Shown here piece by piece: positions 25 to 60,070 of a stretch of DNA of 64,000 nucleotides; the first letter of the stretch is position 1, and each line of letters begins with the position of its first letter. The notes beneath the pieces are model-generated. The model was not told the DNA's origin and did no database searches. It saw only the letters and a program-made list of their open reading frames with translations. The translations under genes and the position numbers were made by a program. The stretch lies in the NCBI GenBank assembly GCA_964623375.1, contig CAZUTS010000002.1, forward strand, positions 126,081 through 190,080, given 5' to 3'. The DNA is from an uncultured Anaerolineaceae bacterium. Its GTDB lineage: Bacteria > Chloroflexota > Anaerolineae > Anaerolineales > UBA11579.

Positions 25-130
25 GTGTCATTATGAGCGGCAGCGTTGGCGAAGCGACGCAATGCTTGTCATTGCGAGGAGTAGTGCCGCTAAGCGGGGC
101 CGCTTGCGGCAAACGGACGAAGCAATCTGC
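25..130. repeat. Two adjacent copies of the dispersed 'GTCATTGCGAG...GAAGCAATC' REP/MITE-like element (family A)
   Basis: 25-65 gtgtcattatgagcgg...gaagcgacgcaatgc. 66-130 ttgtcattgcgaggagtagtgccgc...aaacggacgaagcaatctgc, which is the reverse complement of near-identical copies at 10006-10056 and 35337-35388. Confidence 0.8.
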
Positions 131-5957: not shown

Positions 5958-6000
5958 CTGTCATTCCGAACGAGGCCGCAGGCCGAGGAGGAATCCGTGA
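5958..6000. repeat. Dispersed 'CTGTCATTCCGA(A/G)CG...GAGGAATCC' element (family B)
   Basis: ctgtcattccgaacgaggccgcaggccgaggaggaatccgtga. Related copies at 32028-32068, 32110-32140 (inverted), 35401-35432 and 36782-36822. Confidence 0.8.
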
Positions 6001-8702: not shown

Positions 8703-8892
8703 ATACTCTTCGGGGCAGGGTGATTACGCATCGATAGCCAAAGCGGTGGAGTTTGCGTAGCAAACTCCATTAGCAGCGGCGCCAGCCGCTGCGTAAAATT
8801 CCCGATCGGTGGTACAGCCCACGAGCGCTCCATGAGCGCAGGATCCGGTGAAACTCCGGGGCCGACGGTATAGTCCGGATGAAAGAAGACGC
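8703..8892 (+). promoter_or_regulatory. FMN riboswitch (RFN element) with a 73-nt insertion in L2
   Basis: Matches the RFN consensus blocks: ctcttcggggcagggtga[..]aattcccgatcggtggtacagcccacgagcg ... ggatccggtgaaactccggggccgacggtatagtccggatgaaagaag. Confidence 0.88.
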
Positions 8893-8970
8893 GGAGTTCG
8901 AAGACTCCGCAAGGCAAGTGGCCTGCTTTTACGCAAGCTGCTGGCCTGCGCATTGTGCGTAGCTCTTTCT

Positions 8971-9006
8971 ATGCCCCAAAAGCATTTGCTTTTGGGGCAT
9001 TTTGTT
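8971..9006 (+). terminator. Intrinsic terminator 1 of the riboswitch expression platform
   Basis: atgccccaaaagca-tt-tgcttttggggcat (14-bp perfect stem) followed by tttgtt. Confidence 0.75.
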
Positions 9007-9046
9007 GGAGCGCGTGCCACGTGCTGTTTGTGCTATGCACAATCCA

Positions 9047-9082
9047 CAGCCCCGATGGATTCTATCGGGGCTGTTTTGTTTT
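9047..9082 (+). terminator. Intrinsic terminator 2 (tandem)
   Basis: cagccccgat-ggattct-atcggggctg followed by ttttgtttt, 20 nt before ATG 9103. Confidence 0.7.
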
Positions 9083-9102
9083 GCGAGAGGTTGCAAGTAC
9101 GT

Positions 9103-9909
9103 ATGAAACGTAGTCGAGATCACAAGGGGATGCATGCTGGGTTACTGGCTCTGCTGACGGCTGCTGTGGCCTTGCTGGCCTGGGAGCTGGTGGTGCGTGT
9201 TTCCCAGCTGCCCGCCTTCATTTTGCCCGGCCCGGGTATCGTGTGGGCGCGGCTGCTGACTGCACTGGCCGATGGCAGCCTACTGCGCCACTTGTGGGTC
9301 ACTCTGCAAGAGGTGCTGCTCGGTCTGGCTCTCGGCACGCTAGTGGCCAGCCTGCTGGGATACTGGTTGGCGCGCTCGCCGCGCTGGGAACGTTTGCTGG
9401 CCCCATTCGTGGTGGCCAGCCAATCGGTGCCTATCGTGGCGCTGGCGCCGCTGCTGGTGATCTGGTTCGGGCCCGGTTTGCTCTCCAAGACGCTCATCTG
9501 CGCACTCATCGTTTTCTTCCCTATCCTTATCAACACCATCATTGGCCTCAAGAGCGTGCCGCAGGACTTGCGTGACCTGATGCGCTCCTTGCAGGCCAGC
9601 CGTGCGCAGACCCTGTGCCTGCTCGAGCTGCCCGCCGCGCTGCCCGTGCTGCTGGGCGGGCTGCGTATCGGCGCTACGCTCTCGGTCATTGGCGCGGTGG
9701 TGGGCGAGCTGGTGGGCGCTGACCGCGGCCTGGGCTTCCTCATCAACGTCGGCCGCGGCCAGTACGACACGGCGCTCGTCTTTGTGGCCGTGTTCGCTTT
9801 AGTTGCTATGGCTTTGCTGCTGTACGGCTTGGTTGTGCTGGCGGAGCGCCGCTGGTTATGGTGGCAACAAAAATCCAATTCACTCTCATTATTTTCTGGA
9901 GAACAATGA
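9103..9909 (+). CDS. ABC transporter permease, NitT/TauT (BPD_transp_1) family; candidate riboflavin importer permease (RibX-like)
   Basis: In-frame ATG at 9103, downstream of the terminators; the track ORF start at 8848 would run through the riboswitch. Multi-TM. Downstream of the FMN riboswitch. Confidence 0.75.
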   Translation: MKRSRDHKGMHAGLLALLTAAVALLAWELVVRVSQLPAFILPGPGIVWARLLTALADGSLLRHLWVTLQEVLLGLALGTLVASLLGYWLARSPRWERLLAPFVVASQSVPIVALAPLLVIWFGPGLLSKTLICALIVFFPILINTIIGLKSVPQDLRDLMRSLQASRAQTLCLLELPAALPVLLGGLRIGATLSVIGAVVGELVGADRGLGFLINVGRGQYDTALVFVAVFALVAMALLLYGLVVLAERRWLWWQQKSNSLSLFSGEQ

Positions 9910-11045
9910 AAAACTCTGATTCACTCACTGTCTTTGCGAGCCGCTTTACGGCGAAGCAATCCCCAATTGGGATTGCAAGACAGGCTTGGGGATTATGCAA
10001 TCTAAGATTGCTTCGTCCGTTTGCCGCAAGCGGCAATACTCCTCGCAATGACAAAGCTCCTAGACGCGCTACCCGTGTGACTTTAACCCTGATCGCGGCT
10101 AGCTTGCTGTTGGCCGCCTGTGGCGCAACGGCTGCACCAGCGGGGCCGGTGGAAACTATCCGCCTGCCGATGGGATACATTCCCAACGTACAGTACGCAC
10201 CGTTCTATGTTGCCGTTGAGCGCGGGTACTTTGCCGAGGCAGGCTACGCCATTGAGTTTGACTACAGCTTCGAAACAGATGGCGTGGCTTTAGTGGGCGC
10301 GGGCCAGCTACCCTTTGCGGTCGTCTCCGGCGAGCAGGTACTGCTCGGCCGTGCGGCAGGTTTGCCCATCGTCTATGTGGGCGCGTGGTACCAGGAGTTT
10401 CCGGTGGCTGTGGTGGCGATGGCGGACAGTGGCATCAGCGCCCCACAGGATCTCAAAGGCGCGCGCATTGGCCTGCCCGGCCTGTTCGGCGCTACCTACA
10501 TCGGCCTGCGTGCGCTGTTGAGCCAGCGCAGCATTCTCGAAGCCGATGTGCAGCTCGATTCGATTGGCTTCAATCAAGTGCAGGCGCTGGCCGCCGGGCA
10601 AGAAGATGCCGTGGTGGGCTACGTCAACAATGAGCCTATCCAGCTAGAGGCCCAAGGCTACGACGTCACCGTGCTGCACGTGGCCGATTATGTGGACCTG
10701 GCTGCCAATGGCATCCTCACCAACGAGAGCATGCTGGCTGAGCAGCCTGAGCGCGTGCGCGGCTTTGTGCGTGCCTTCCTGCGCGGCCTGGCCGACACCA
10801 TTGCTGACCCTGAGGCCGCGTACCAGATCTCCACAAAATACGTAGAAGGGCTGGCCGCGCTGGACAAAGACACCCAGATGGCCGTGCTGACCCTATCCAT
10901 TGAATCGTGGCAGGCCGAGCCGCTGGGTTACTCCAGCCCGCAAGCCTGGGAGAACATGCACGCCGTGTTGCTGGAGATGGGCATGCTGACCCAGCCGCTG
11001 GATGTGAGCGCCGCCTTCACCAACGAGTACCTGCCGGCTGACTAA
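9906..11045 (+). CDS. ABC substrate-binding lipoprotein, NMT1/THI5/ThiY-like; candidate riboflavin-binding RibY-like
   Basis: ATGA overlap with the permease stop and GGAG RBS. Lipobox 'LLLAAC'. 'GYIPNVQYAPFYVAVERGYF' is typical of NMT1/ThiY-type SBPs. Confidence 0.7.
   Translation: MKNSDSLTVFASRFTAKQSPIGIARQAWGLCNLRLLRPFAASGNTPRNDKAPRRATRVTLTLIAASLLLAACGATAAPAGPVETIRLPMGYIPNVQYAPFYVAVERGYFAEAGYAIEFDYSFETDGVALVGAGQLPFAVVSGEQVLLGRAAGLPIVYVGAWYQEFPVAVVAMADSGISAPQDLKGARIGLPGLFGATYIGLRALLSQRSILEADVQLDSIGFNQVQALAAGQEDAVVGYVNNEPIQLEAQGYDVTVLHVADYVDLAANGILTNESMLAEQPERVRGFVRAFLRGLADTIADPEAAYQISTKYVEGLAALDKDTQMAVLTLSIESWQAEPLGYSSPQAWENMHAVLLEMGMLTQPLDVSAAFTNEYLPAD
9928..10056. repeat. Composite family-A repeat (unit, spacer, inverted unit) lying in frame inside the 5' end of the SBP gene
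   Basis: ctgtctttgcgagccgctttacggcgaagcaatcccc ... gattgcttcgtccgtttgccgcaagcggcaatactcctcgcaatgacaaag. Same architecture as 35295-35388. Confidence 0.8.
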
Positions 11046-11806
11046 TGCCTGCTGCCAAGACCGCTCCCTTGCTTTCGGTAGAGAAGCTCTCGGCCAGCTT
11101 TGCTGACCGCACGGGCCAGCTCTCCGTGCTGCGCAACGTGACTTTCAGCGTGCCGCGCGGCCAGTTCCTGTGCGTGCTCGGCCCGTCTGGCTCGGGCAAG
11201 AGCACGCTGCTGCGCCTCTTGGCGGGCTTGTTGCCCGCCAACCGCGGCCGCATTCACTTCGCTGGCCAGCCTGTGGACGGCGCACAGGCTGGGGTGGGGC
11301 TAGTGTTCCAGGACGCCAACCTGATGCCCTGGCGCACCGCGCTCGATAACGTGGCCCTACCGCTGGAGCTGCGCAATGACCCTGATGCGATCGACCGTGC
11401 CTGGGACATGCTGCAGCTCGTCGGCTTGCAGGGTTTTGAGCAGGCGCTGCCCAGCCAACTTTCCGGCGGTATGGCGCAACGCGTGGCGATTGGCCGCGCC
11501 TTGGTGCAAGACCCGCAGCTGCTGCTGCTGGACGAGCCGTTTGGCTCGTTGGATGCGCTCACGCGCGAGAAGATGGGCGAGGAGCTGCTGCGCATCTGGG
11601 AGCTGGAGCACAAGACGGTGGTGATGGTCACGCATGACATCAACGAGGCGCTCTACCTTGCGGACCGCGTGCTGGTGCTCGGCAAGCGCCCGGCCAGCAT
11701 CAAGCTGGATATGCCTGTCAGCCTGGCGCGCCCGCGCCGCCCCGAGCTGCGCTATTCGCCCGCCTTTGGGCGCATGGCGGCGCAATTACGCGCAGCCATC
11801 GAATAG
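11045..11806 (+). CDS. ABC transporter ATP-binding protein (NitT/TauT family)
   Basis: 253 aa. 'GPSGSGKSTLL', 'LSGGMAQRVAIGRAL', 'LLLLDEPFGSLD'. TAATG overlap with the SBP stop. Confidence 0.9.
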   Translation: MPAAKTAPLLSVEKLSASFADRTGQLSVLRNVTFSVPRGQFLCVLGPSGSGKSTLLRLLAGLLPANRGRIHFAGQPVDGAQAGVGLVFQDANLMPWRTALDNVALPLELRNDPDAIDRAWDMLQLVGLQGFEQALPSQLSGGMAQRVAIGRALVQDPQLLLLDEPFGSLDALTREKMGEELLRIWELEHKTVVMVTHDINEALYLADRVLVLGKRPASIKLDMPVSLARPRRPELRYSPAFGRMAAQLRAAIE

Positions 11807-31917: not shown

Positions 31918-31941
31918 CGCAATGACAGGGCGGAGAAGGCT

Positions 31942-31968
31942 AACCACAAGGACACAAAGAGCACGAAG
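31942..31968. repeat. 'AACCACAAAGNCACAAAG' element, single arm
   Basis: aaccacaaggacacaaagagcacgaag. Related to the arms at 39197-39240 and 47408-47480. Confidence 0.6.
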
Positions 31969-32027: not shown

Positions 32028-32140
32028 CTGTCATTCCGAACGAGCGGCGAAGCCGTGAGGAGGAATCCTTTAGGCCACTCCTAACACCAGCTTGACTCTG
32101 AATGACTTAAAGGATTTCCCACTTCGTTCGGAATGACAGG
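32028..32140. repeat. Inverted pair of family-B elements forming a long hairpin
   Basis: cctgtcattccgaacga (32028-) and tcgttcggaatgacagg (-32140) are perfectly complementary 17-mers flanking about 75 nt. Confidence 0.8.
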
Positions 32141-35294: not shown

Positions 35295-35432
35295 CTGTCA
35301 TTGCGAGCCGGCGAAGCAATCTCCAAGCCGATACTGGGATTGCTTCGTCCGTTTGCCGCACAGCGGCAATACTCCTCGCAATGACAAGTTGCCTGTACCT
35401 GTGTCATTCCGAGCGCAGCGAGGAATCCGTGC
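35295..35432. repeat. Cluster of a family-A composite (unit + inverted unit) and a family-B unit
   Basis: ctgtcattgcgagccggcgaagcaatctcc ... gggattgcttcgtccgtttgccgcacagcggcaatactcctcgcaatgacaag ... gtgtcattccgagcgcagcgaggaatccgtgc. Confidence 0.85.
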
Positions 35433-36781: not shown

Positions 36782-36822
36782 CTGTCATTCCGAGCCTGAG
36801 CGAAGCGAATGGCGAGGAATTT
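36782..36822. repeat. Family-B element
   Basis: ctgtcattccgagcctgagcgaagcgaatggcgaggaattt. Confidence 0.7.
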
Positions 36823-36932
36823 ACAAGAGGCGGTGTTTGTTTCAGGATGTATCTGCCTGCAGCAGCCTAAAGCTTACAGCTTAAGGCTTAGAGCTGATTG
36901 CTGACCGCTGATGGCTGAACGCTGCTCCCCGC

Positions 36933-39175: not shown

Positions 39176-39196
39176 AATCAAAACTAACCAAAGACA

Positions 39197-39240
39197 CAAA
39201 GGGCACAAAGAAAAACATAAGCATTTCTTTGTGCCCTTTG
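39197..39240. terminator. Bidirectional terminator-like hairpin built from the 'CACAAAG' element
   Basis: caaagggcacaaagaaa-(10 nt)-tttctttgtgccctttg, a perfect 17-bp stem between convergent genes. Confidence 0.6.
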
Positions 39241-45660: not shown

Positions 45661-46395
45661 TTATGGAATGTGCTTAGCCCACACCCCCGTAAACTCAGGC
45701 ACGCGTTGCCAGCCATTGGCACGCACGCGCTCGGCCATCTCTTCGCCAAAGAAGAAGGTGCACAGTTCAACGGCGCGCTCCACGCTGCCAAAATCGTAGT
45801 CGGTGGCCACGGTGGTACGCACGAAGCCATGCTCGTTTTCCAGCCAGGCGTAGTAGGCTGCCAGCCCAGCGTGCGGCGGGGCGGGCTGCAGCACGCCAGT
45901 GCCCAGCGTTTCCATAATGATCAACGTGCCGCCGGGTTTGACCGTGCGTTGCATTTCGGCGATGGCGCGGCCAGCGTGCTGCTGCCAGGCATCGGGATAC
46001 CAACCCACCAGGTGCCCGAAGGCCCAGCCGGCCGTGACCACATCGGCCCAGCCGCTGGCGAAGGGGGTCTGGCGGCCGTCGGCTTGCACGAGGGGCCAGC
46101 TGGCTTGGGGATTGCTTCGCTCGCTAGCGCTCGCTCGCAAAGACGCGTCTTCCATTTGCTTCTTTTGCTCACGCAGCATAGCCATGTGCAGATCAGAGGC
46201 CACGATGTGGCAATCCAGCCCGCGCAGCAGCAACGGGATGCGCCCGCTGCCACTGCCAAGGTCGAGCAGACGTGCACCAGCCAGCGGGGTGATGGCTTGC
46301 AAGGCGGGCAGCAAATTACCGTCGGTGTCCTCGGCGGCGATCAGCGCATGGTAGGCGGCGGCTTTGTTGGTATAGACGTTGCGGAAGTGATCCAT
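45661..46395 (-). CDS. Class I SAM-dependent methyltransferase
   Basis: 244 aa. Motif I 'RLLDLGSGSGR', 'VKPGGTLII'. Contains an in-frame repeat-derived insert. Confidence 0.8.
   Translation of the reverse strand: MDHFRNVYTNKAAAYHALIAAEDTDGNLLPALQAITPLAGARLLDLGSGSGRIPLLLRGLDCHIVASDLHMAMLREQKKQMEDASLRASASERSNPQASWPLVQADGRQTPFASGWADVVTAGWAFGHLVGWYPDAWQQHAGRAIAEMQRTVKPGGTLIIMETLGTGVLQPAPPHAGLAAYYAWLENEHGFVRTTVATDYDFGSVERAVELCTFFFGEEMAERVRANGWQRVPEFTGVWAKHIP
46107..46144. repeat. Family-A-like repeat in frame inside the methyltransferase CDS
   Basis: ggggattgcttcgctcgctagcgctcgctcgcaaagac. Its reverse complement gtctttgcgagcgagcgctagcgagcgaagcaatcccc matches the gtcattgcgag...gaagcaatc pattern. 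Encodes 'SLRASASERSNPQ'. Confidence 0.65.
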
Positions 46396-47354: not shown

Positions 47355-47360
47355 ATTTTA
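47355..47360 (-). promoter_or_regulatory. -10 box TAAAAT 6 nt upstream of ATG 47348; leaderless-type
   Basis: Minus strand: gtTAAAATtcacccATG. Confidence 0.4.
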
Positions 47361-47407
47361 ACCACAGATAAACACGGATGCACGCAGAAAGACCAAGGCA
47401 AAACCAT

Positions 47408-47480
47408 AACCACAAAGGCACAAAGAGCACAAAGTTGCTTTCCCTCGATTCTTCTTTGTGTCCTTTGTGTCTTTGTGGTT
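47408..47480. repeat. Long imperfect hairpin of the 'AACCACAAAGNCACAAAG' element in a divergent promoter region
   Basis: aaccacaaaggcacaaagagcacaaag ... ctttgtgtcctttgtgtctttgtggtt (24/27 complementary). Confidence 0.75.
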
Positions 47481-55317: not shown

Positions 55318-55485
55318 GCGGGGCCTCCGGAAGGTAGAACAATCGCGGGATTATACCAACCTCGCCCCCTCTTATATGCCCTGCGCTTACTTCTTATACA
55401 TCTCTTACGTGCCGGCCGGGGTGACAGCTTGCTGGAAAATTTGCCACAGATGAACGCAGATAGACGCCGATAACTGCAAAAACCA

Positions 55486-55513
55486 GATTGCTTCGCTTCG
55501 CTCGCAATGACGG
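55486..55513. repeat. Family-A element, single unit
   Basis: gattgcttcgcttcgctcgcaatgacggg. Confidence 0.7.
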
Positions 55514-59065: not shown

Positions 59066-59428
59066 TTATTCCGGCCCGACCACAAAGACTGGAGGCAGCG
59101 GATGGCACTGGCCACAGCCGATGCGCGGCTCTTCTACGCTGGCCTGGCTCAGGCTGCATTCGGCTTTGATCTGCACCGCCGGCTTCATAAAGAAGAGCGG
59201 CTTATGAATGCTCGGTATCAAGGTCTGGTGTTCACAGGCGTTGGCGGCAAGGATGCCGGGCACCGGGCACTCATTGCACAGGCTCGGCTCCCACTGCAGG
59301 CGATACGCATCCAGCAGGCGGCAGCGTTCGACGTTGCGGCCGCGGAAGTAATCGCCGTGAAAGTGCTTGCACTCTTTGCCTGCTGGCGTGATCATGCGAG
59401 GATTATAGCGGGGCAGAAAGCTATCCAC
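59066..59428 (-). CDS. Cys-rich small protein, hypothetical
   Basis: 120 aa (or shorter from 'MITPAGKEC'). 'CKHFHGDY...CRLL...CNECPVPG...CEH...CGQCH'. No family recognised. Confidence 0.4.
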   Translation of the reverse strand: MDSFLPRYNPRMITPAGKECKHFHGDYFRGRNVERCRLLDAYRLQWEPSLCNECPVPGILAANACEHQTLIPSIHKPLFFMKPAVQIKAECSLSQASVEEPRIGCGQCHPLPPVFVVGPE

Positions 59429-59511
59429 AGATGAATACAGATTTTAACTGCGATAAACACAGATAATTGTTATCTGTGTTTATCGGTCTATGCATCTGTG
59501 TATATCTGTGG
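59425..59511. repeat. Nested palindrome of the 'CCACAGAT / AAACACAGATAA' element
   Basis: Inner perfect 16-bp hairpin cgataaacacagataa-ttg-ttatctgtgtttatcg (59451-59485). Outer arms ccacagatgaatacagat / atctgtgtatatctgtgg. Confidence 0.75.
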
Positions 59512-59512
59512 A

Positions 59513-60070
59513 TTAAACGCGGGTGACGTACTCGCCGGTGCGGGTGTCCACACGAATGACATCGCCCTGGTTCACGAAGGCAGGCACCTGAACTTGCAGG
59601 CCGGTCTCGGTGGTCACGGTCTTGTTCACACCGGTGGCGGTATCGCCGCGCACGGCGACTTCGGCCTGGGTCACTTCCAGGTCTACCGCGGTAGGCAGCT
59701 CCACATCCAGCGCCTCGCTGCCGTAGAAGGTCAGCTTCACTTCCATGCCTTCCTTCAAGTACTCGGCAGAGTCACCGAGCACCTCGGAGGGCAGGGCGGG
59801 CTGCTCGTAGGTTTCCTGGTCCATGAAGATGTAGTTGTCGCCGTCTTTGTAGAGGAACTGCACGTTGTGATAGTCCAGACGCACGTCTTGCACGCGCATA
59901 CCGGAGTTCCAGGTCTTTTCAATGTTGGAGCCGGTGCGCAGGTTGCGCGCCTTCACGCGGATGGTGGCGCTGCCGCGGCCGGGTTTGTTGTGGGAGTATT
60001 CAAATACCTTATAGAGCTGGCCGTCTTCTTCAAAGACAACCCCTTTGCGCAGGTCATTTACATCGATCAT
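59513..60070 (-). CDS. efp: Elongation factor P
   Basis: 185 aa. 'DLRKGVVFEEDGQLYKVFEYSHNKPGRGSATIRVKARNLRTG'. AGGAG RBS. Confidence 0.95.
   Translation of the reverse strand: MIDVNDLRKGVVFEEDGQLYKVFEYSHNKPGRGSATIRVKARNLRTGSNIEKTWNSGMRVQDVRLDYHNVQFLYKDGDNYIFMDQETYEQPALPSEVLGDSAEYLKEGMEVKLTFYGSEALDVELPTAVDLEVTQAEVAVRGDTATGVNKTVTTETGLQVQVPAFVNQGDVIRVDTRTGEYVTRV

Follow-up and report, generated by a model that had tools for sequence, protein, structure and literature searches.

When a palindromic repeat sits between the start codon of a gene and the signal peptide encoded by that gene, is the repeat translated, or does translation begin beyond it? This question is raised by a locus in a 64,000-nt stretch of contig CAZUTS010000002.1 (positions 126,081–190,080; hereafter the window) from an uncultured Anaerolineaceae bacterium. 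At 9930–10052 of the window, three units (L, M and R) of a dispersed family, similar to repetitive extragenic palindromes (REPs) and to the inverted REP doublets called REPINs, lie in frame and without a stop codon inside the gene for a riboflavin-type substrate-binding protein (SBP), between ATG 9906 and the hydrophobic region (h-region) and lipobox of its lipoprotein signal peptide. Because the frame is kept in all five haplotypes that carry the insert, substitutions show a frame-specific synonymous bias and the sole Shine–Dalgarno sequence (SD) precedes ATG 9906, the insert is probably translated and would lengthen the signal-peptide n-region by a stretch rich in Arg and Lys, to be removed later by cleavage. 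The locus is built as follows.

9898–9901 and 9906–9908, forward strand: SD (GGAG) and ATG of the SBP gene, the putative ancestral, translationally coupled start
9909–9929, forward strand: left flank, codons 2–8 (KNSDSLT), haplotype-variable, with four of its six variable sites synonymous
9930–9961, forward strand: unit L, GTCTTTGCGAG-CCGCTTTACGG-CGAAGCAATC, of the same type as the unit at 35297–35321
9971–10002, forward strand: unit M (GATTGCA...TGCAATC), site-specific, with a single match in the window and present in all filled alleles (those with the insert)
10006–10052, reverse strand: unit R, inverted, with near-identical units at 35338–35385 and 68–127
10008–10010, forward strand: in-frame TTG, an alternative start without SD, in the hairpin stem
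10053–10076, forward strand: right flank AAAGCTCCTAGACGCGCTACCCGT (KAPRRATR), the source of the basic residues adjoining the h-region
10077–10079, forward strand: in-frame GTG (ATG in the L003 haplotype), an alternative start without SD, giving an n-region without K or R
10077–10121, forward strand: h-region and lipobox (VTLTLIAASLL-LAAC) with the Cys codon at 10119–10121; the lipoboxes of about 120 orthologues were aligned

The open frame from 9906 translates as MKNSDSLTVFASRFTAKQSPIGIARQAWGLCNLRLLRPFAASGNTPRNDKAPRRATRVTLTLIAASLLLAAC, and the N terminus read from this codon is MKNSDSLTVFASRFTAKQSPIGIARQAWGLCNLRLLRPFAASGNTPRNDKAPRRATR-VTLTLIAASLL-LAAC. The original prediction for this DNA described a composite resembling REPs or MITEs (miniature inverted-repeat transposable elements), in frame and stop-free in the n-region, and both the sequence and the repeat matches confirm this; it had counted two units where there are three. 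It had also placed the lipobox about 57 codons after the start, but codon 58 (GTG 10077) is where the h-region begins, and the lipobox LAAC occupies codons 69–72 (10110–10121) with Cys at codon 72. At its outer termini the composite has 11-nt inverted repeats, and a long hairpin is closed by pairing between those of L and R. Folding, which the prediction had proposed as a check, gave one long hairpin for 9930–10052 (−62.1 kcal/mol, z = −2.6); in the minimum free energy fold SD and ATG 9906 are unpaired, the hairpin starts 24 nt downstream and TTG 10008 lies inside the stem. The predicted signal peptide (..RRATR-VTLTLIAASLL-LAAC) combines a basic n-region, an h-region and a lipobox of the form [LVI][ASTVI][GAS]C, as expected of a signal peptidase II substrate, with 11 K/R against 2 D/E in the n-region extension and hydropathy of up to 2.3 over the final 15 residues. 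A Tat signal was considered and rejected because RRATRV fits the S/T-R-R-x-F-L-K motif badly and the orthologues lack RR.

Units of the family have the form YGTCATTGCGAG, a variable self-complementary interior and CGAAGCAATC. Nine full units of 25–60 nt are listed in the window, with ATTGC/GCAAT termini and self-complementary interiors; full units with a GTCATTGCGAG start, a GC-rich variable self-complementary interior and a CGAAGCAATC end lie at 68–127, 9930–9961, 10006–10052 (reverse), 35297–35321, 35338–35385 (reverse), 46110–46144 (reverse) and 55486–55511 (reverse). Copy number was counted in the 64-kb window only, where the terminus GTCATTSCGAG (at most one mismatch) occurs 15 times against 2.1 expected; none of 100 shuffles reached 15. 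Within the composite, 10005–10034 is 100% complementary to 99–128 and 10029–10054 is 96% complementary to 66–91. Of two intergenic counterparts named in the prediction, the one at 35297–35385 is a true L+R doublet, whereas 66–130 holds only an R-type unit. Copies outside the SBP gene are as follows.

28–127, forward strand: two intergenic units, an R-type unit at 68–127 with a 13-nt longer interior and another at 28–66
35297–35385: intergenic L+R doublet (35297–35321 on the forward strand, 35338–35385 on the reverse), the true counterpart of the SBP doublet
35403–35427: GGAATC-type unit after the intergenic doublet
46110–46144, reverse strand: single in-frame unit (SLRASASERSNP; context ..DASLRASASERSNPQA..) within a class I S-adenosylmethionine (SAM) methyltransferase open reading frame (ORF) at 45661–46395 (reverse)
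55486–55511, reverse strand: minimal intergenic unit GTCATTGCGA-GCGAAGC-GAAGCAATC

Alignment with insertion-free orthologues, another check proposed at the outset, identified near-identical genes that lack the insert and start with MKTRLF... at the same ATGA. The closest genomes were reached via exact-protein matches (L and P numbers denote loci and proteins in our collections). The empty orthologues nearest to the window are L091 (P0244), L002 (P0004) and L007/L008 (P0002); they run ggagatgtATGAAGACTCGATTG.. and read MKTRLF..SLLLAAC from the ATGA overlap itself, with the junction ..GGAGATGT-ATGA-AGACTCGATTG... The mature protein of empty P0244 is 97.4% identical to that of the window, closer than that of any filled allele. 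In the window the permease stop TGA 9907–9909 overlaps ATG 9906–9908 as ATGA, and every filled allele has GGAG..ATGA, as do L002, L007 and L091 among the empty ones, in agreement with the claim that this overlap and the GGAG fix the SBP start at 9906. Because the empty alleles begin at the ATGA, ATG 9906 appears to be the ancestral start, originally without a spacer.

Filled alleles were found in 13 independent assemblies (the window, NCBI GCA_019637755.1, GCA_026129255.1 and GCA_026129365.1, and others from ENA, JGI and Logan), which represent five distinct haplotypes: the window; L001; L092; L090; and L003 with L004–6 and L093–97. A metagenome scan with an insertion-specific 25-mer gave 0 matches and added no haplotype, in a collection that is incomplete for this purpose, as the JGI contig L093 carries the 25-mer. 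The ORF from the ATGA is open in 5 of 5 filled haplotypes. Four of them share a short form in which R together with its right flank is 48 nt, or exactly 16 codons, shorter, so that R is complete in the window haplotype only. Two mature-protein clades, about 12% apart, each contain both filled and empty alleles; for this reason the SBP 5′ segment has its own genealogy, presumably via recombination, and the pattern suggests an old polymorphism moved by recombination.

Substitutions among the five haplotypes follow the reading frame. The first 108 nt after the ATG contain 15 variable sites; read in the ORF frame, ten of these are synonymous, compared with 4/14 and 3/14 in the other frames. With an expected synonymous fraction of 0.27, the binomial P is 0.0015; permutations in which the changes were moved to same-base sites, optionally excluding stop-creating changes or using only the family's variable positions, gave P = 0.0008–0.0034. 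In the mature region the same haplotypes have 166 synonymous against 65 non-synonymous sites (72%), which shows that the SBP gene is functional in insert-bearing genomes, and the insert (67% synonymous) is indistinguishable from this region (Fisher P = 0.77).

The signals for initiation also favour ATG 9906, the only candidate preceded by an SD (GGAG); the 16 nt before TTG 10008 and before GTG 10077 (tagacgcgctacccgt) contain none. GTG 10077 had been put forward as the sole in-frame alternative, overlooking TTG 10008, but it was rightly predicted to yield an n-region without a basic residue: translation from 10077 would give MTLTLIA.., with no K/R, and every orthologue has K/R early. For comparison across species we used 80 species-level Anaerolineales loci with the orthologous operon, at no more than 70% identity, among the matches listed; each of the 78 starts resolvable among them has a strong SD and is followed by K/R within the first residues. 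When the frame is read from 9906, RRATR (in the short form RLPRA) adjoins the h-region. In the short alleles the outer arm of the hairpin is gone, and their folding is no more stable than that of shuffled sequence (z = −1.55); since this applies to four of the five haplotypes, it is the reading frame, rather than RNA structure, that is conserved in the window lineage. Of the two readings that the original prediction had left open, translated extension or RNA structure, the former is favoured here by frame, synonymous bias and the sole SD, and the latter fits the spacers of distant species described below.

Several observations weigh against translation from 9906 as the whole account. The substitution test covers only 15 sites in five related haplotypes, and the long form with complete R was seen in the window genome only. 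One haplotype group (L003) has ATG at the 10077 position, and public start calls disagree: NCBI proteins P0242, P0243 and P0250 begin MTLTL../MTLIA.. at a GTG, ATG or TTG 3′ of the repeat, and de novo calls (P0241, P0001 and P0248) start at the ATGA. Because of this ATG and these NCBI starts, there may be additional internal initiation at the 10077 position. An n-region of 57 residues is unusually long for a lipoprotein signal peptide. Filled and empty alleles also differ in the permease tail (SLSLFSGEQ* versus SSIYGDV*), over about 30 nt upstream and in the early half of the h-region, and these last two differences indicate that the history of the alleles involves more than a single clean insertion. 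Both the left flank AACTCTGATTC and the right flank ACCCGTGTG loosely resemble the empty-site ACTCGATTG, a match too degenerate to call a target-site duplication or to fix the insertion point.

The same doublet pattern occurs in at least 120 metagenome stretches. Its standard form, there and in the 80 operon loci, is inverted: YGTCATTGCGAG-interior-CGAAGCAATC-TCC, about 10–16 nt, then GGA-GATTGCTTCG-interior-CTCGCAATGAC-A. Plus/minus pairs 15–17 nt apart were found at 35297–35385 of the window and in L021, L026, L027, L031, L040, L051 and L073. The tag is YGTC, with CGTC in L021, L026, L027, L132 and the window unit ending at 55511 and TGTC in most others. Doublets usually occupy the gap from a stop codon to the AAGGAGA SD of the next gene, and the stop often abuts the tag (TGA|TGTC...). 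They fill the permease–SBP gap in L009, L021, L031, L040, L060, L069 and L081, and the SBP–ATPase gap in L023, L036, L040, L051 and L073. In the doublet-bearing distant species the doublet is followed by a separate SD for the SBP gene and by an MFRKL.. start, and 4 of the 6 true-spacer doublets (L009, L021, L031, L040, L069 and L081) contain stops in the SBP frame, as expected without selection; for both reasons the permease–SBP spacer doublets of these species are, judged by their sequence, clearly untranslated. A different organisation, unlike that of the dispersed doublets, was seen in tandem arrays in L132 (3969–4886, at least 8 copies), L166 and L142, where a doublet and a 35–40 nt linker recur with a period of 121–124 nt.

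This arrangement in distant species speaks for taking the insert as an untranslated intercistronic spacer, with the SBP start at GTG 10077 (ATG in some relatives) or TTG 10008 and an open frame that is a coincidence of stop-poor units. Stops are absent from 5 of the 6 frames of single units and from 2 of the 6 frames of the composite, the L003 ATG and the NCBI annotation of relatives would fit, and most REPs at ORF N termini have been argued to be misannotations (Di Nocera et al. 2013, PMC3733652). However, we consider a spacer unlikely. Both downstream codons lack the SD present in every orthologue, TTG 10008 would be buried in the hairpin stem, and the MTLTL.. signal peptide would be without the K/R that the orthologues all have. 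At 9906 the ancestral SD and ATG are intact, leaving nothing to stop ribosomes from starting there, and a spacer would account neither for a synonymous excess in the ORF frame only nor for a 48-nt indel that preserves the frame.

That the element owes its retention chiefly to a role in RNA, with a hairpin like those of REPs or bacterial interspersed mosaic elements (BIMEs) setting the relative stability or processing of the permease and SBP segments of the mRNA and with translation incidental, seems rather improbable. E. coli REPs in malE–malF and hisJ–hisQ, which are doublets in the spacers of ABC-transporter operons, stabilise upstream mRNA, and in many Anaerolineales species doublets are found, on either side of the SBP gene, in precisely the interval from a stop to the following SD. 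The enrichment beside this gene is modest, though: 17 of 60 terminus matches in the 80 listed loci flank it, about 28% against about 18% if matches were spread evenly over intergenic junctions. The window form folds into a stable hairpin, yet the four haplotypes without the outer R arm persist, empty alleles coexist in near-identical backgrounds, and substitutions track codon position rather than stem pairing. That the insert is an assembly artefact, or the SBP gene a decaying pseudogene in insert-bearing genomes, is scarcely credible: the window does come from a metagenome-assembled genome and its long form was seen once, but 13 assemblies from four sources carry the filled allele, purifying selection on the filled mature region is strong and synteny is intact. 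For the short form this explanation is effectively refuted.

Translation of the insert could have arisen as follows. A REPIN-like doublet of the Anaerolineales family would have landed at its usual site, a few bases after an in-operon stop codon; the SBP copy has an extra middle unit beyond the two inverted ones. Because the permease stop overlaps the SBP start (ATGA), this site would fall inside the first SBP codons, so only an in-frame, stop-free copy could survive. Ribosomes would couple from the permease stop to ATG 9906, the sole start with an SD, unwind the hairpin and read through the repeat, producing a preprotein with an n-region 43 residues longer (57 in total), or in short alleles about 27 longer (about 41 in total). 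The h-region and lipobox would then direct Sec export, lipidation by Lgt and cleavage by signal peptidase II; as these last two steps would remove the repeat-encoded residues, which would be discarded, the mature riboflavin-type binding lipoprotein would be unchanged.

Copies lying in frame inside other genes were also found and support translation of the SBP insert. In many orthologues of the methyltransferase encoded at 45661–46395 this site holds a unit, which in some is the R-type unit of the SBP gene (SLRGVLPLAANGRSNPQA), and about half of the 40 aligned have none. At this site the termini are the same and the interiors differ across orthologues (SASE, EPQAQ, VLPLAANG and double units). 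In the metagenome locus L164, a complete 87-nt doublet (29 codons, 719–805) lies inside the domain of an ORF resembling pyruvate formate-lyase (PFL), a glycyl-radical enzyme, and the Pfam match spans it as a single stretch (residues 218–494). In-frame, stop-free insertions with orthologues that lack them are found in the SBP gene, the methyltransferase gene and PFL-like L164. L164 was the only one accepted as intragenic among 17 long ORFs through metagenome doublets; most of the 16 rejected were Arg-rich and spurious-looking, in high-GC DNA, and in two real genes, PBP1C (L142) and PPK2 (L113), the Pfam domains begin only after the doublet, which probably precedes the true start.

Going further, one might propose that the repeat-encoded SBP peptide is a functional pro-region or extended signal region, tuning export or coupling, since constraint on it looks as strong as on the mature protein, and that the family is a coding-competent module colonising ORFs, with a targeted or templated mechanism exchanging its interiors at fixed sites, since the methyltransferase site shows at least five interiors between the same termini. 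We give this proposal little credence.

In-frame palindromic repeats in genes are an already known phenomenon, and the SBP case is a tolerated oddity rather than a new mechanism; the repeat itself is probably selfish DNA. Ogata et al. are said to have described, in 2000, Rickettsia palindromic elements (RPEs) inserted in frame in protein genes. An unusually long, basic N-terminal extension before a normal h-region is known from the extended signal peptide region (ESPR) of autotransporters, a conserved functional motif; the SBP extension shares its length, charge and position and differs in being repeat-derived and presence/absence polymorphic. GTAG- and CGTC-tagged REPs have been described, with intragenic copies in several species, including the RPEs of Rickettsia (Di Nocera et al. 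2013, PMC3733652). According to the same source, REP clusters can encode 43–82 aa and some RPE-1-decorated N termini are expressed, and many N-terminal REP cases are probably misannotated starts. The SBP insert resembles intragenic REPs and RPEs as a short, palindromic, dispersed repeat, in frame and stop-free in a functional gene with orthologues that lack it. It differs in belonging to a Chloroflexota family of other sequence, in lying in a cleavable lipoprotein n-region at an ATGA junction, and in that its translation is backed by a population-level synonymous excess, not assumed.

With REPINs and BIMEs (Bertels & Rainey 2011, cited in PMC3733652), the family shares two inverted units with an approximately 16-nt spacer that form a long imperfect hairpin, located just after stops between co-directional genes and recurring beside SBP genes; its tag is YGTC rather than GTAG, its interiors are highly variable, and the window doublet lies inside an ORF, not a spacer. 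Similarities to the CGTC REP super-family (Di Nocera et al. 2013) include a stem that starts with AT (ATTGC..GCAAT), a tail that ends ..CCA (GCAATCCCCA, GCAATCTCCA), a CGTC tag in a minority of units and published families that are likewise without a dedicated transposase. We do not file the family there because it is mostly TGTC-tagged and has a short conserved stem (5 bp) with a variable inner hairpin, in contrast to stems of 8–9 bp with 4–5 nt loops. MITEs (Correia/NEMIS, RUP, Nezha and ERIC, listed in PMC3733652) are also small non-coding elements with inverted termini and an RNA fold, in or near genes, but the units here are much shorter and modular, and the target-site match is too degenerate for comparison. 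Among the ten window ORFs near repeats that were scanned, none encodes a transposase, and thus no REP-associated tyrosine transposase (RAYT) was seen. A literature search by terminus sequence found no published name for the family, only unrelated primer matches, and as far as this search goes this REPIN-like family of Chloroflexota is undescribed.

The SBP insert has an unusual location, at an ATGA junction and within the cleavable signal peptide of a lipoprotein, yet one easily explained: a preferred post-stop landing site collides with an overlapping start, and a signal peptide that can be cleaved off can safely hold extra residues. REPs at ORF 5′ ends are usually dismissed as start misannotation; here the repeat is probably translated, a concrete case built on coding-type substitution and on naturally occurring filled and empty alleles whose backgrounds are near-identical. 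The disagreement between two annotation traditions (NCBI MTLTL.. versus ATG 9906) is a warning that re-annotation to a downstream start is not always right, and the alleles offer a simple system for studying tolerance of n-region length in Sec/Lsp processing.

The surrounding operon supports the riboflavin-type label given to the SBP gene in the original prediction, through a flavin mononucleotide (FMN) riboswitch and NMT1, BPD_transp_1 and ABC_tran domains. Its features are as follows.

8774–8894, forward strand: FMN riboswitch aptamer at the operon head (Rfam RF00050; score 75.8 bits, gathering threshold 66.2)
8946–9074: terminator-like hairpins 3′ of the riboswitch, from a terminator scan
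9103–9909, forward strand: ABC permease gene, 268 aa (PF00528, E = 1.4e-31)
9906–11045, forward strand: SBP gene, an NMT1/THI5-like lipoprotein precursor of 379 codons if read from ATG 9906 (PF09084)
11045–11806: ABC ATPase gene (PF00005)

The order of FMN riboswitch, permease, NMT1/THI5-like SBP and ATPase is that of a RibXY-like importer with a predicted riboflavin-type substrate, and operon synteny is kept in relatives. The PF09084 match covers residues 94–305 of the SBP (E = 5.8e-49), the exact 379-aa product is P0241 in the protein collection, and permease orthologues in L002, L090 and L003 have 267–268 aa. A gathering-threshold Rfam search of the window returned only the FMN riboswitch, and a permissive search of 9800–10200 only noise. 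The terminator/promoter scan shows nothing inside the insert, so we rejected an intrinsic terminator as its identity. An antisense ORF at 9806–10186 (reverse strand, 126 aa) spans the composite and was discarded as a by-product of the palindrome, two of whose six frames are open. Mechanical ORFs at 8848–9909 and 9858–11045 over-extend the permease and SBP genes. The former begins inside the FMN riboswitch, the real permease start being at about 9103 (268 aa, as in relatives); the latter starts at an upstream in-frame ATG, 9858, within the permease gene, and in a relative with the short allele the database entry P0245 likewise takes the corresponding ATG as its start.

Other repeats share the intergenic regions of the window. 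A sister type occurs as GTCATTCCGA..GGAATC at 5960–5995, 32030–32067 and 35403–35427 and, in the form GTCATTCCGA(A/G)..GAGGAATC, at 5960–5995, 32030–32137, 35403–35427 and 36784–36830, in intergenic regions shared with the GCAATC type. Another intergenic family with CACAAAG-like words (..AACCACAAAGGCACAAAGAGCACAAAG..) is found at 31941–31968, 39183–39210 and 47407–47434, partly as inverted pairs; the inverted partner of 47407–47434 lies near 47445–47480. A third, CCACAGATGAAYRCAGAT.., is present at 55446–55470, 47357–47385 and 59423–59513, the last being a 44-nt inverted pair with a 3-nt gap. The window itself starts with a perfect palindrome, GGGCGAAGCATGCTTCGCCC (1–20). The GCGAAGC in the minimal unit at 55486–55511 is an exceptionally stable DNA mini-hairpin, and together with this palindrome it hints at a role as single-stranded DNA.

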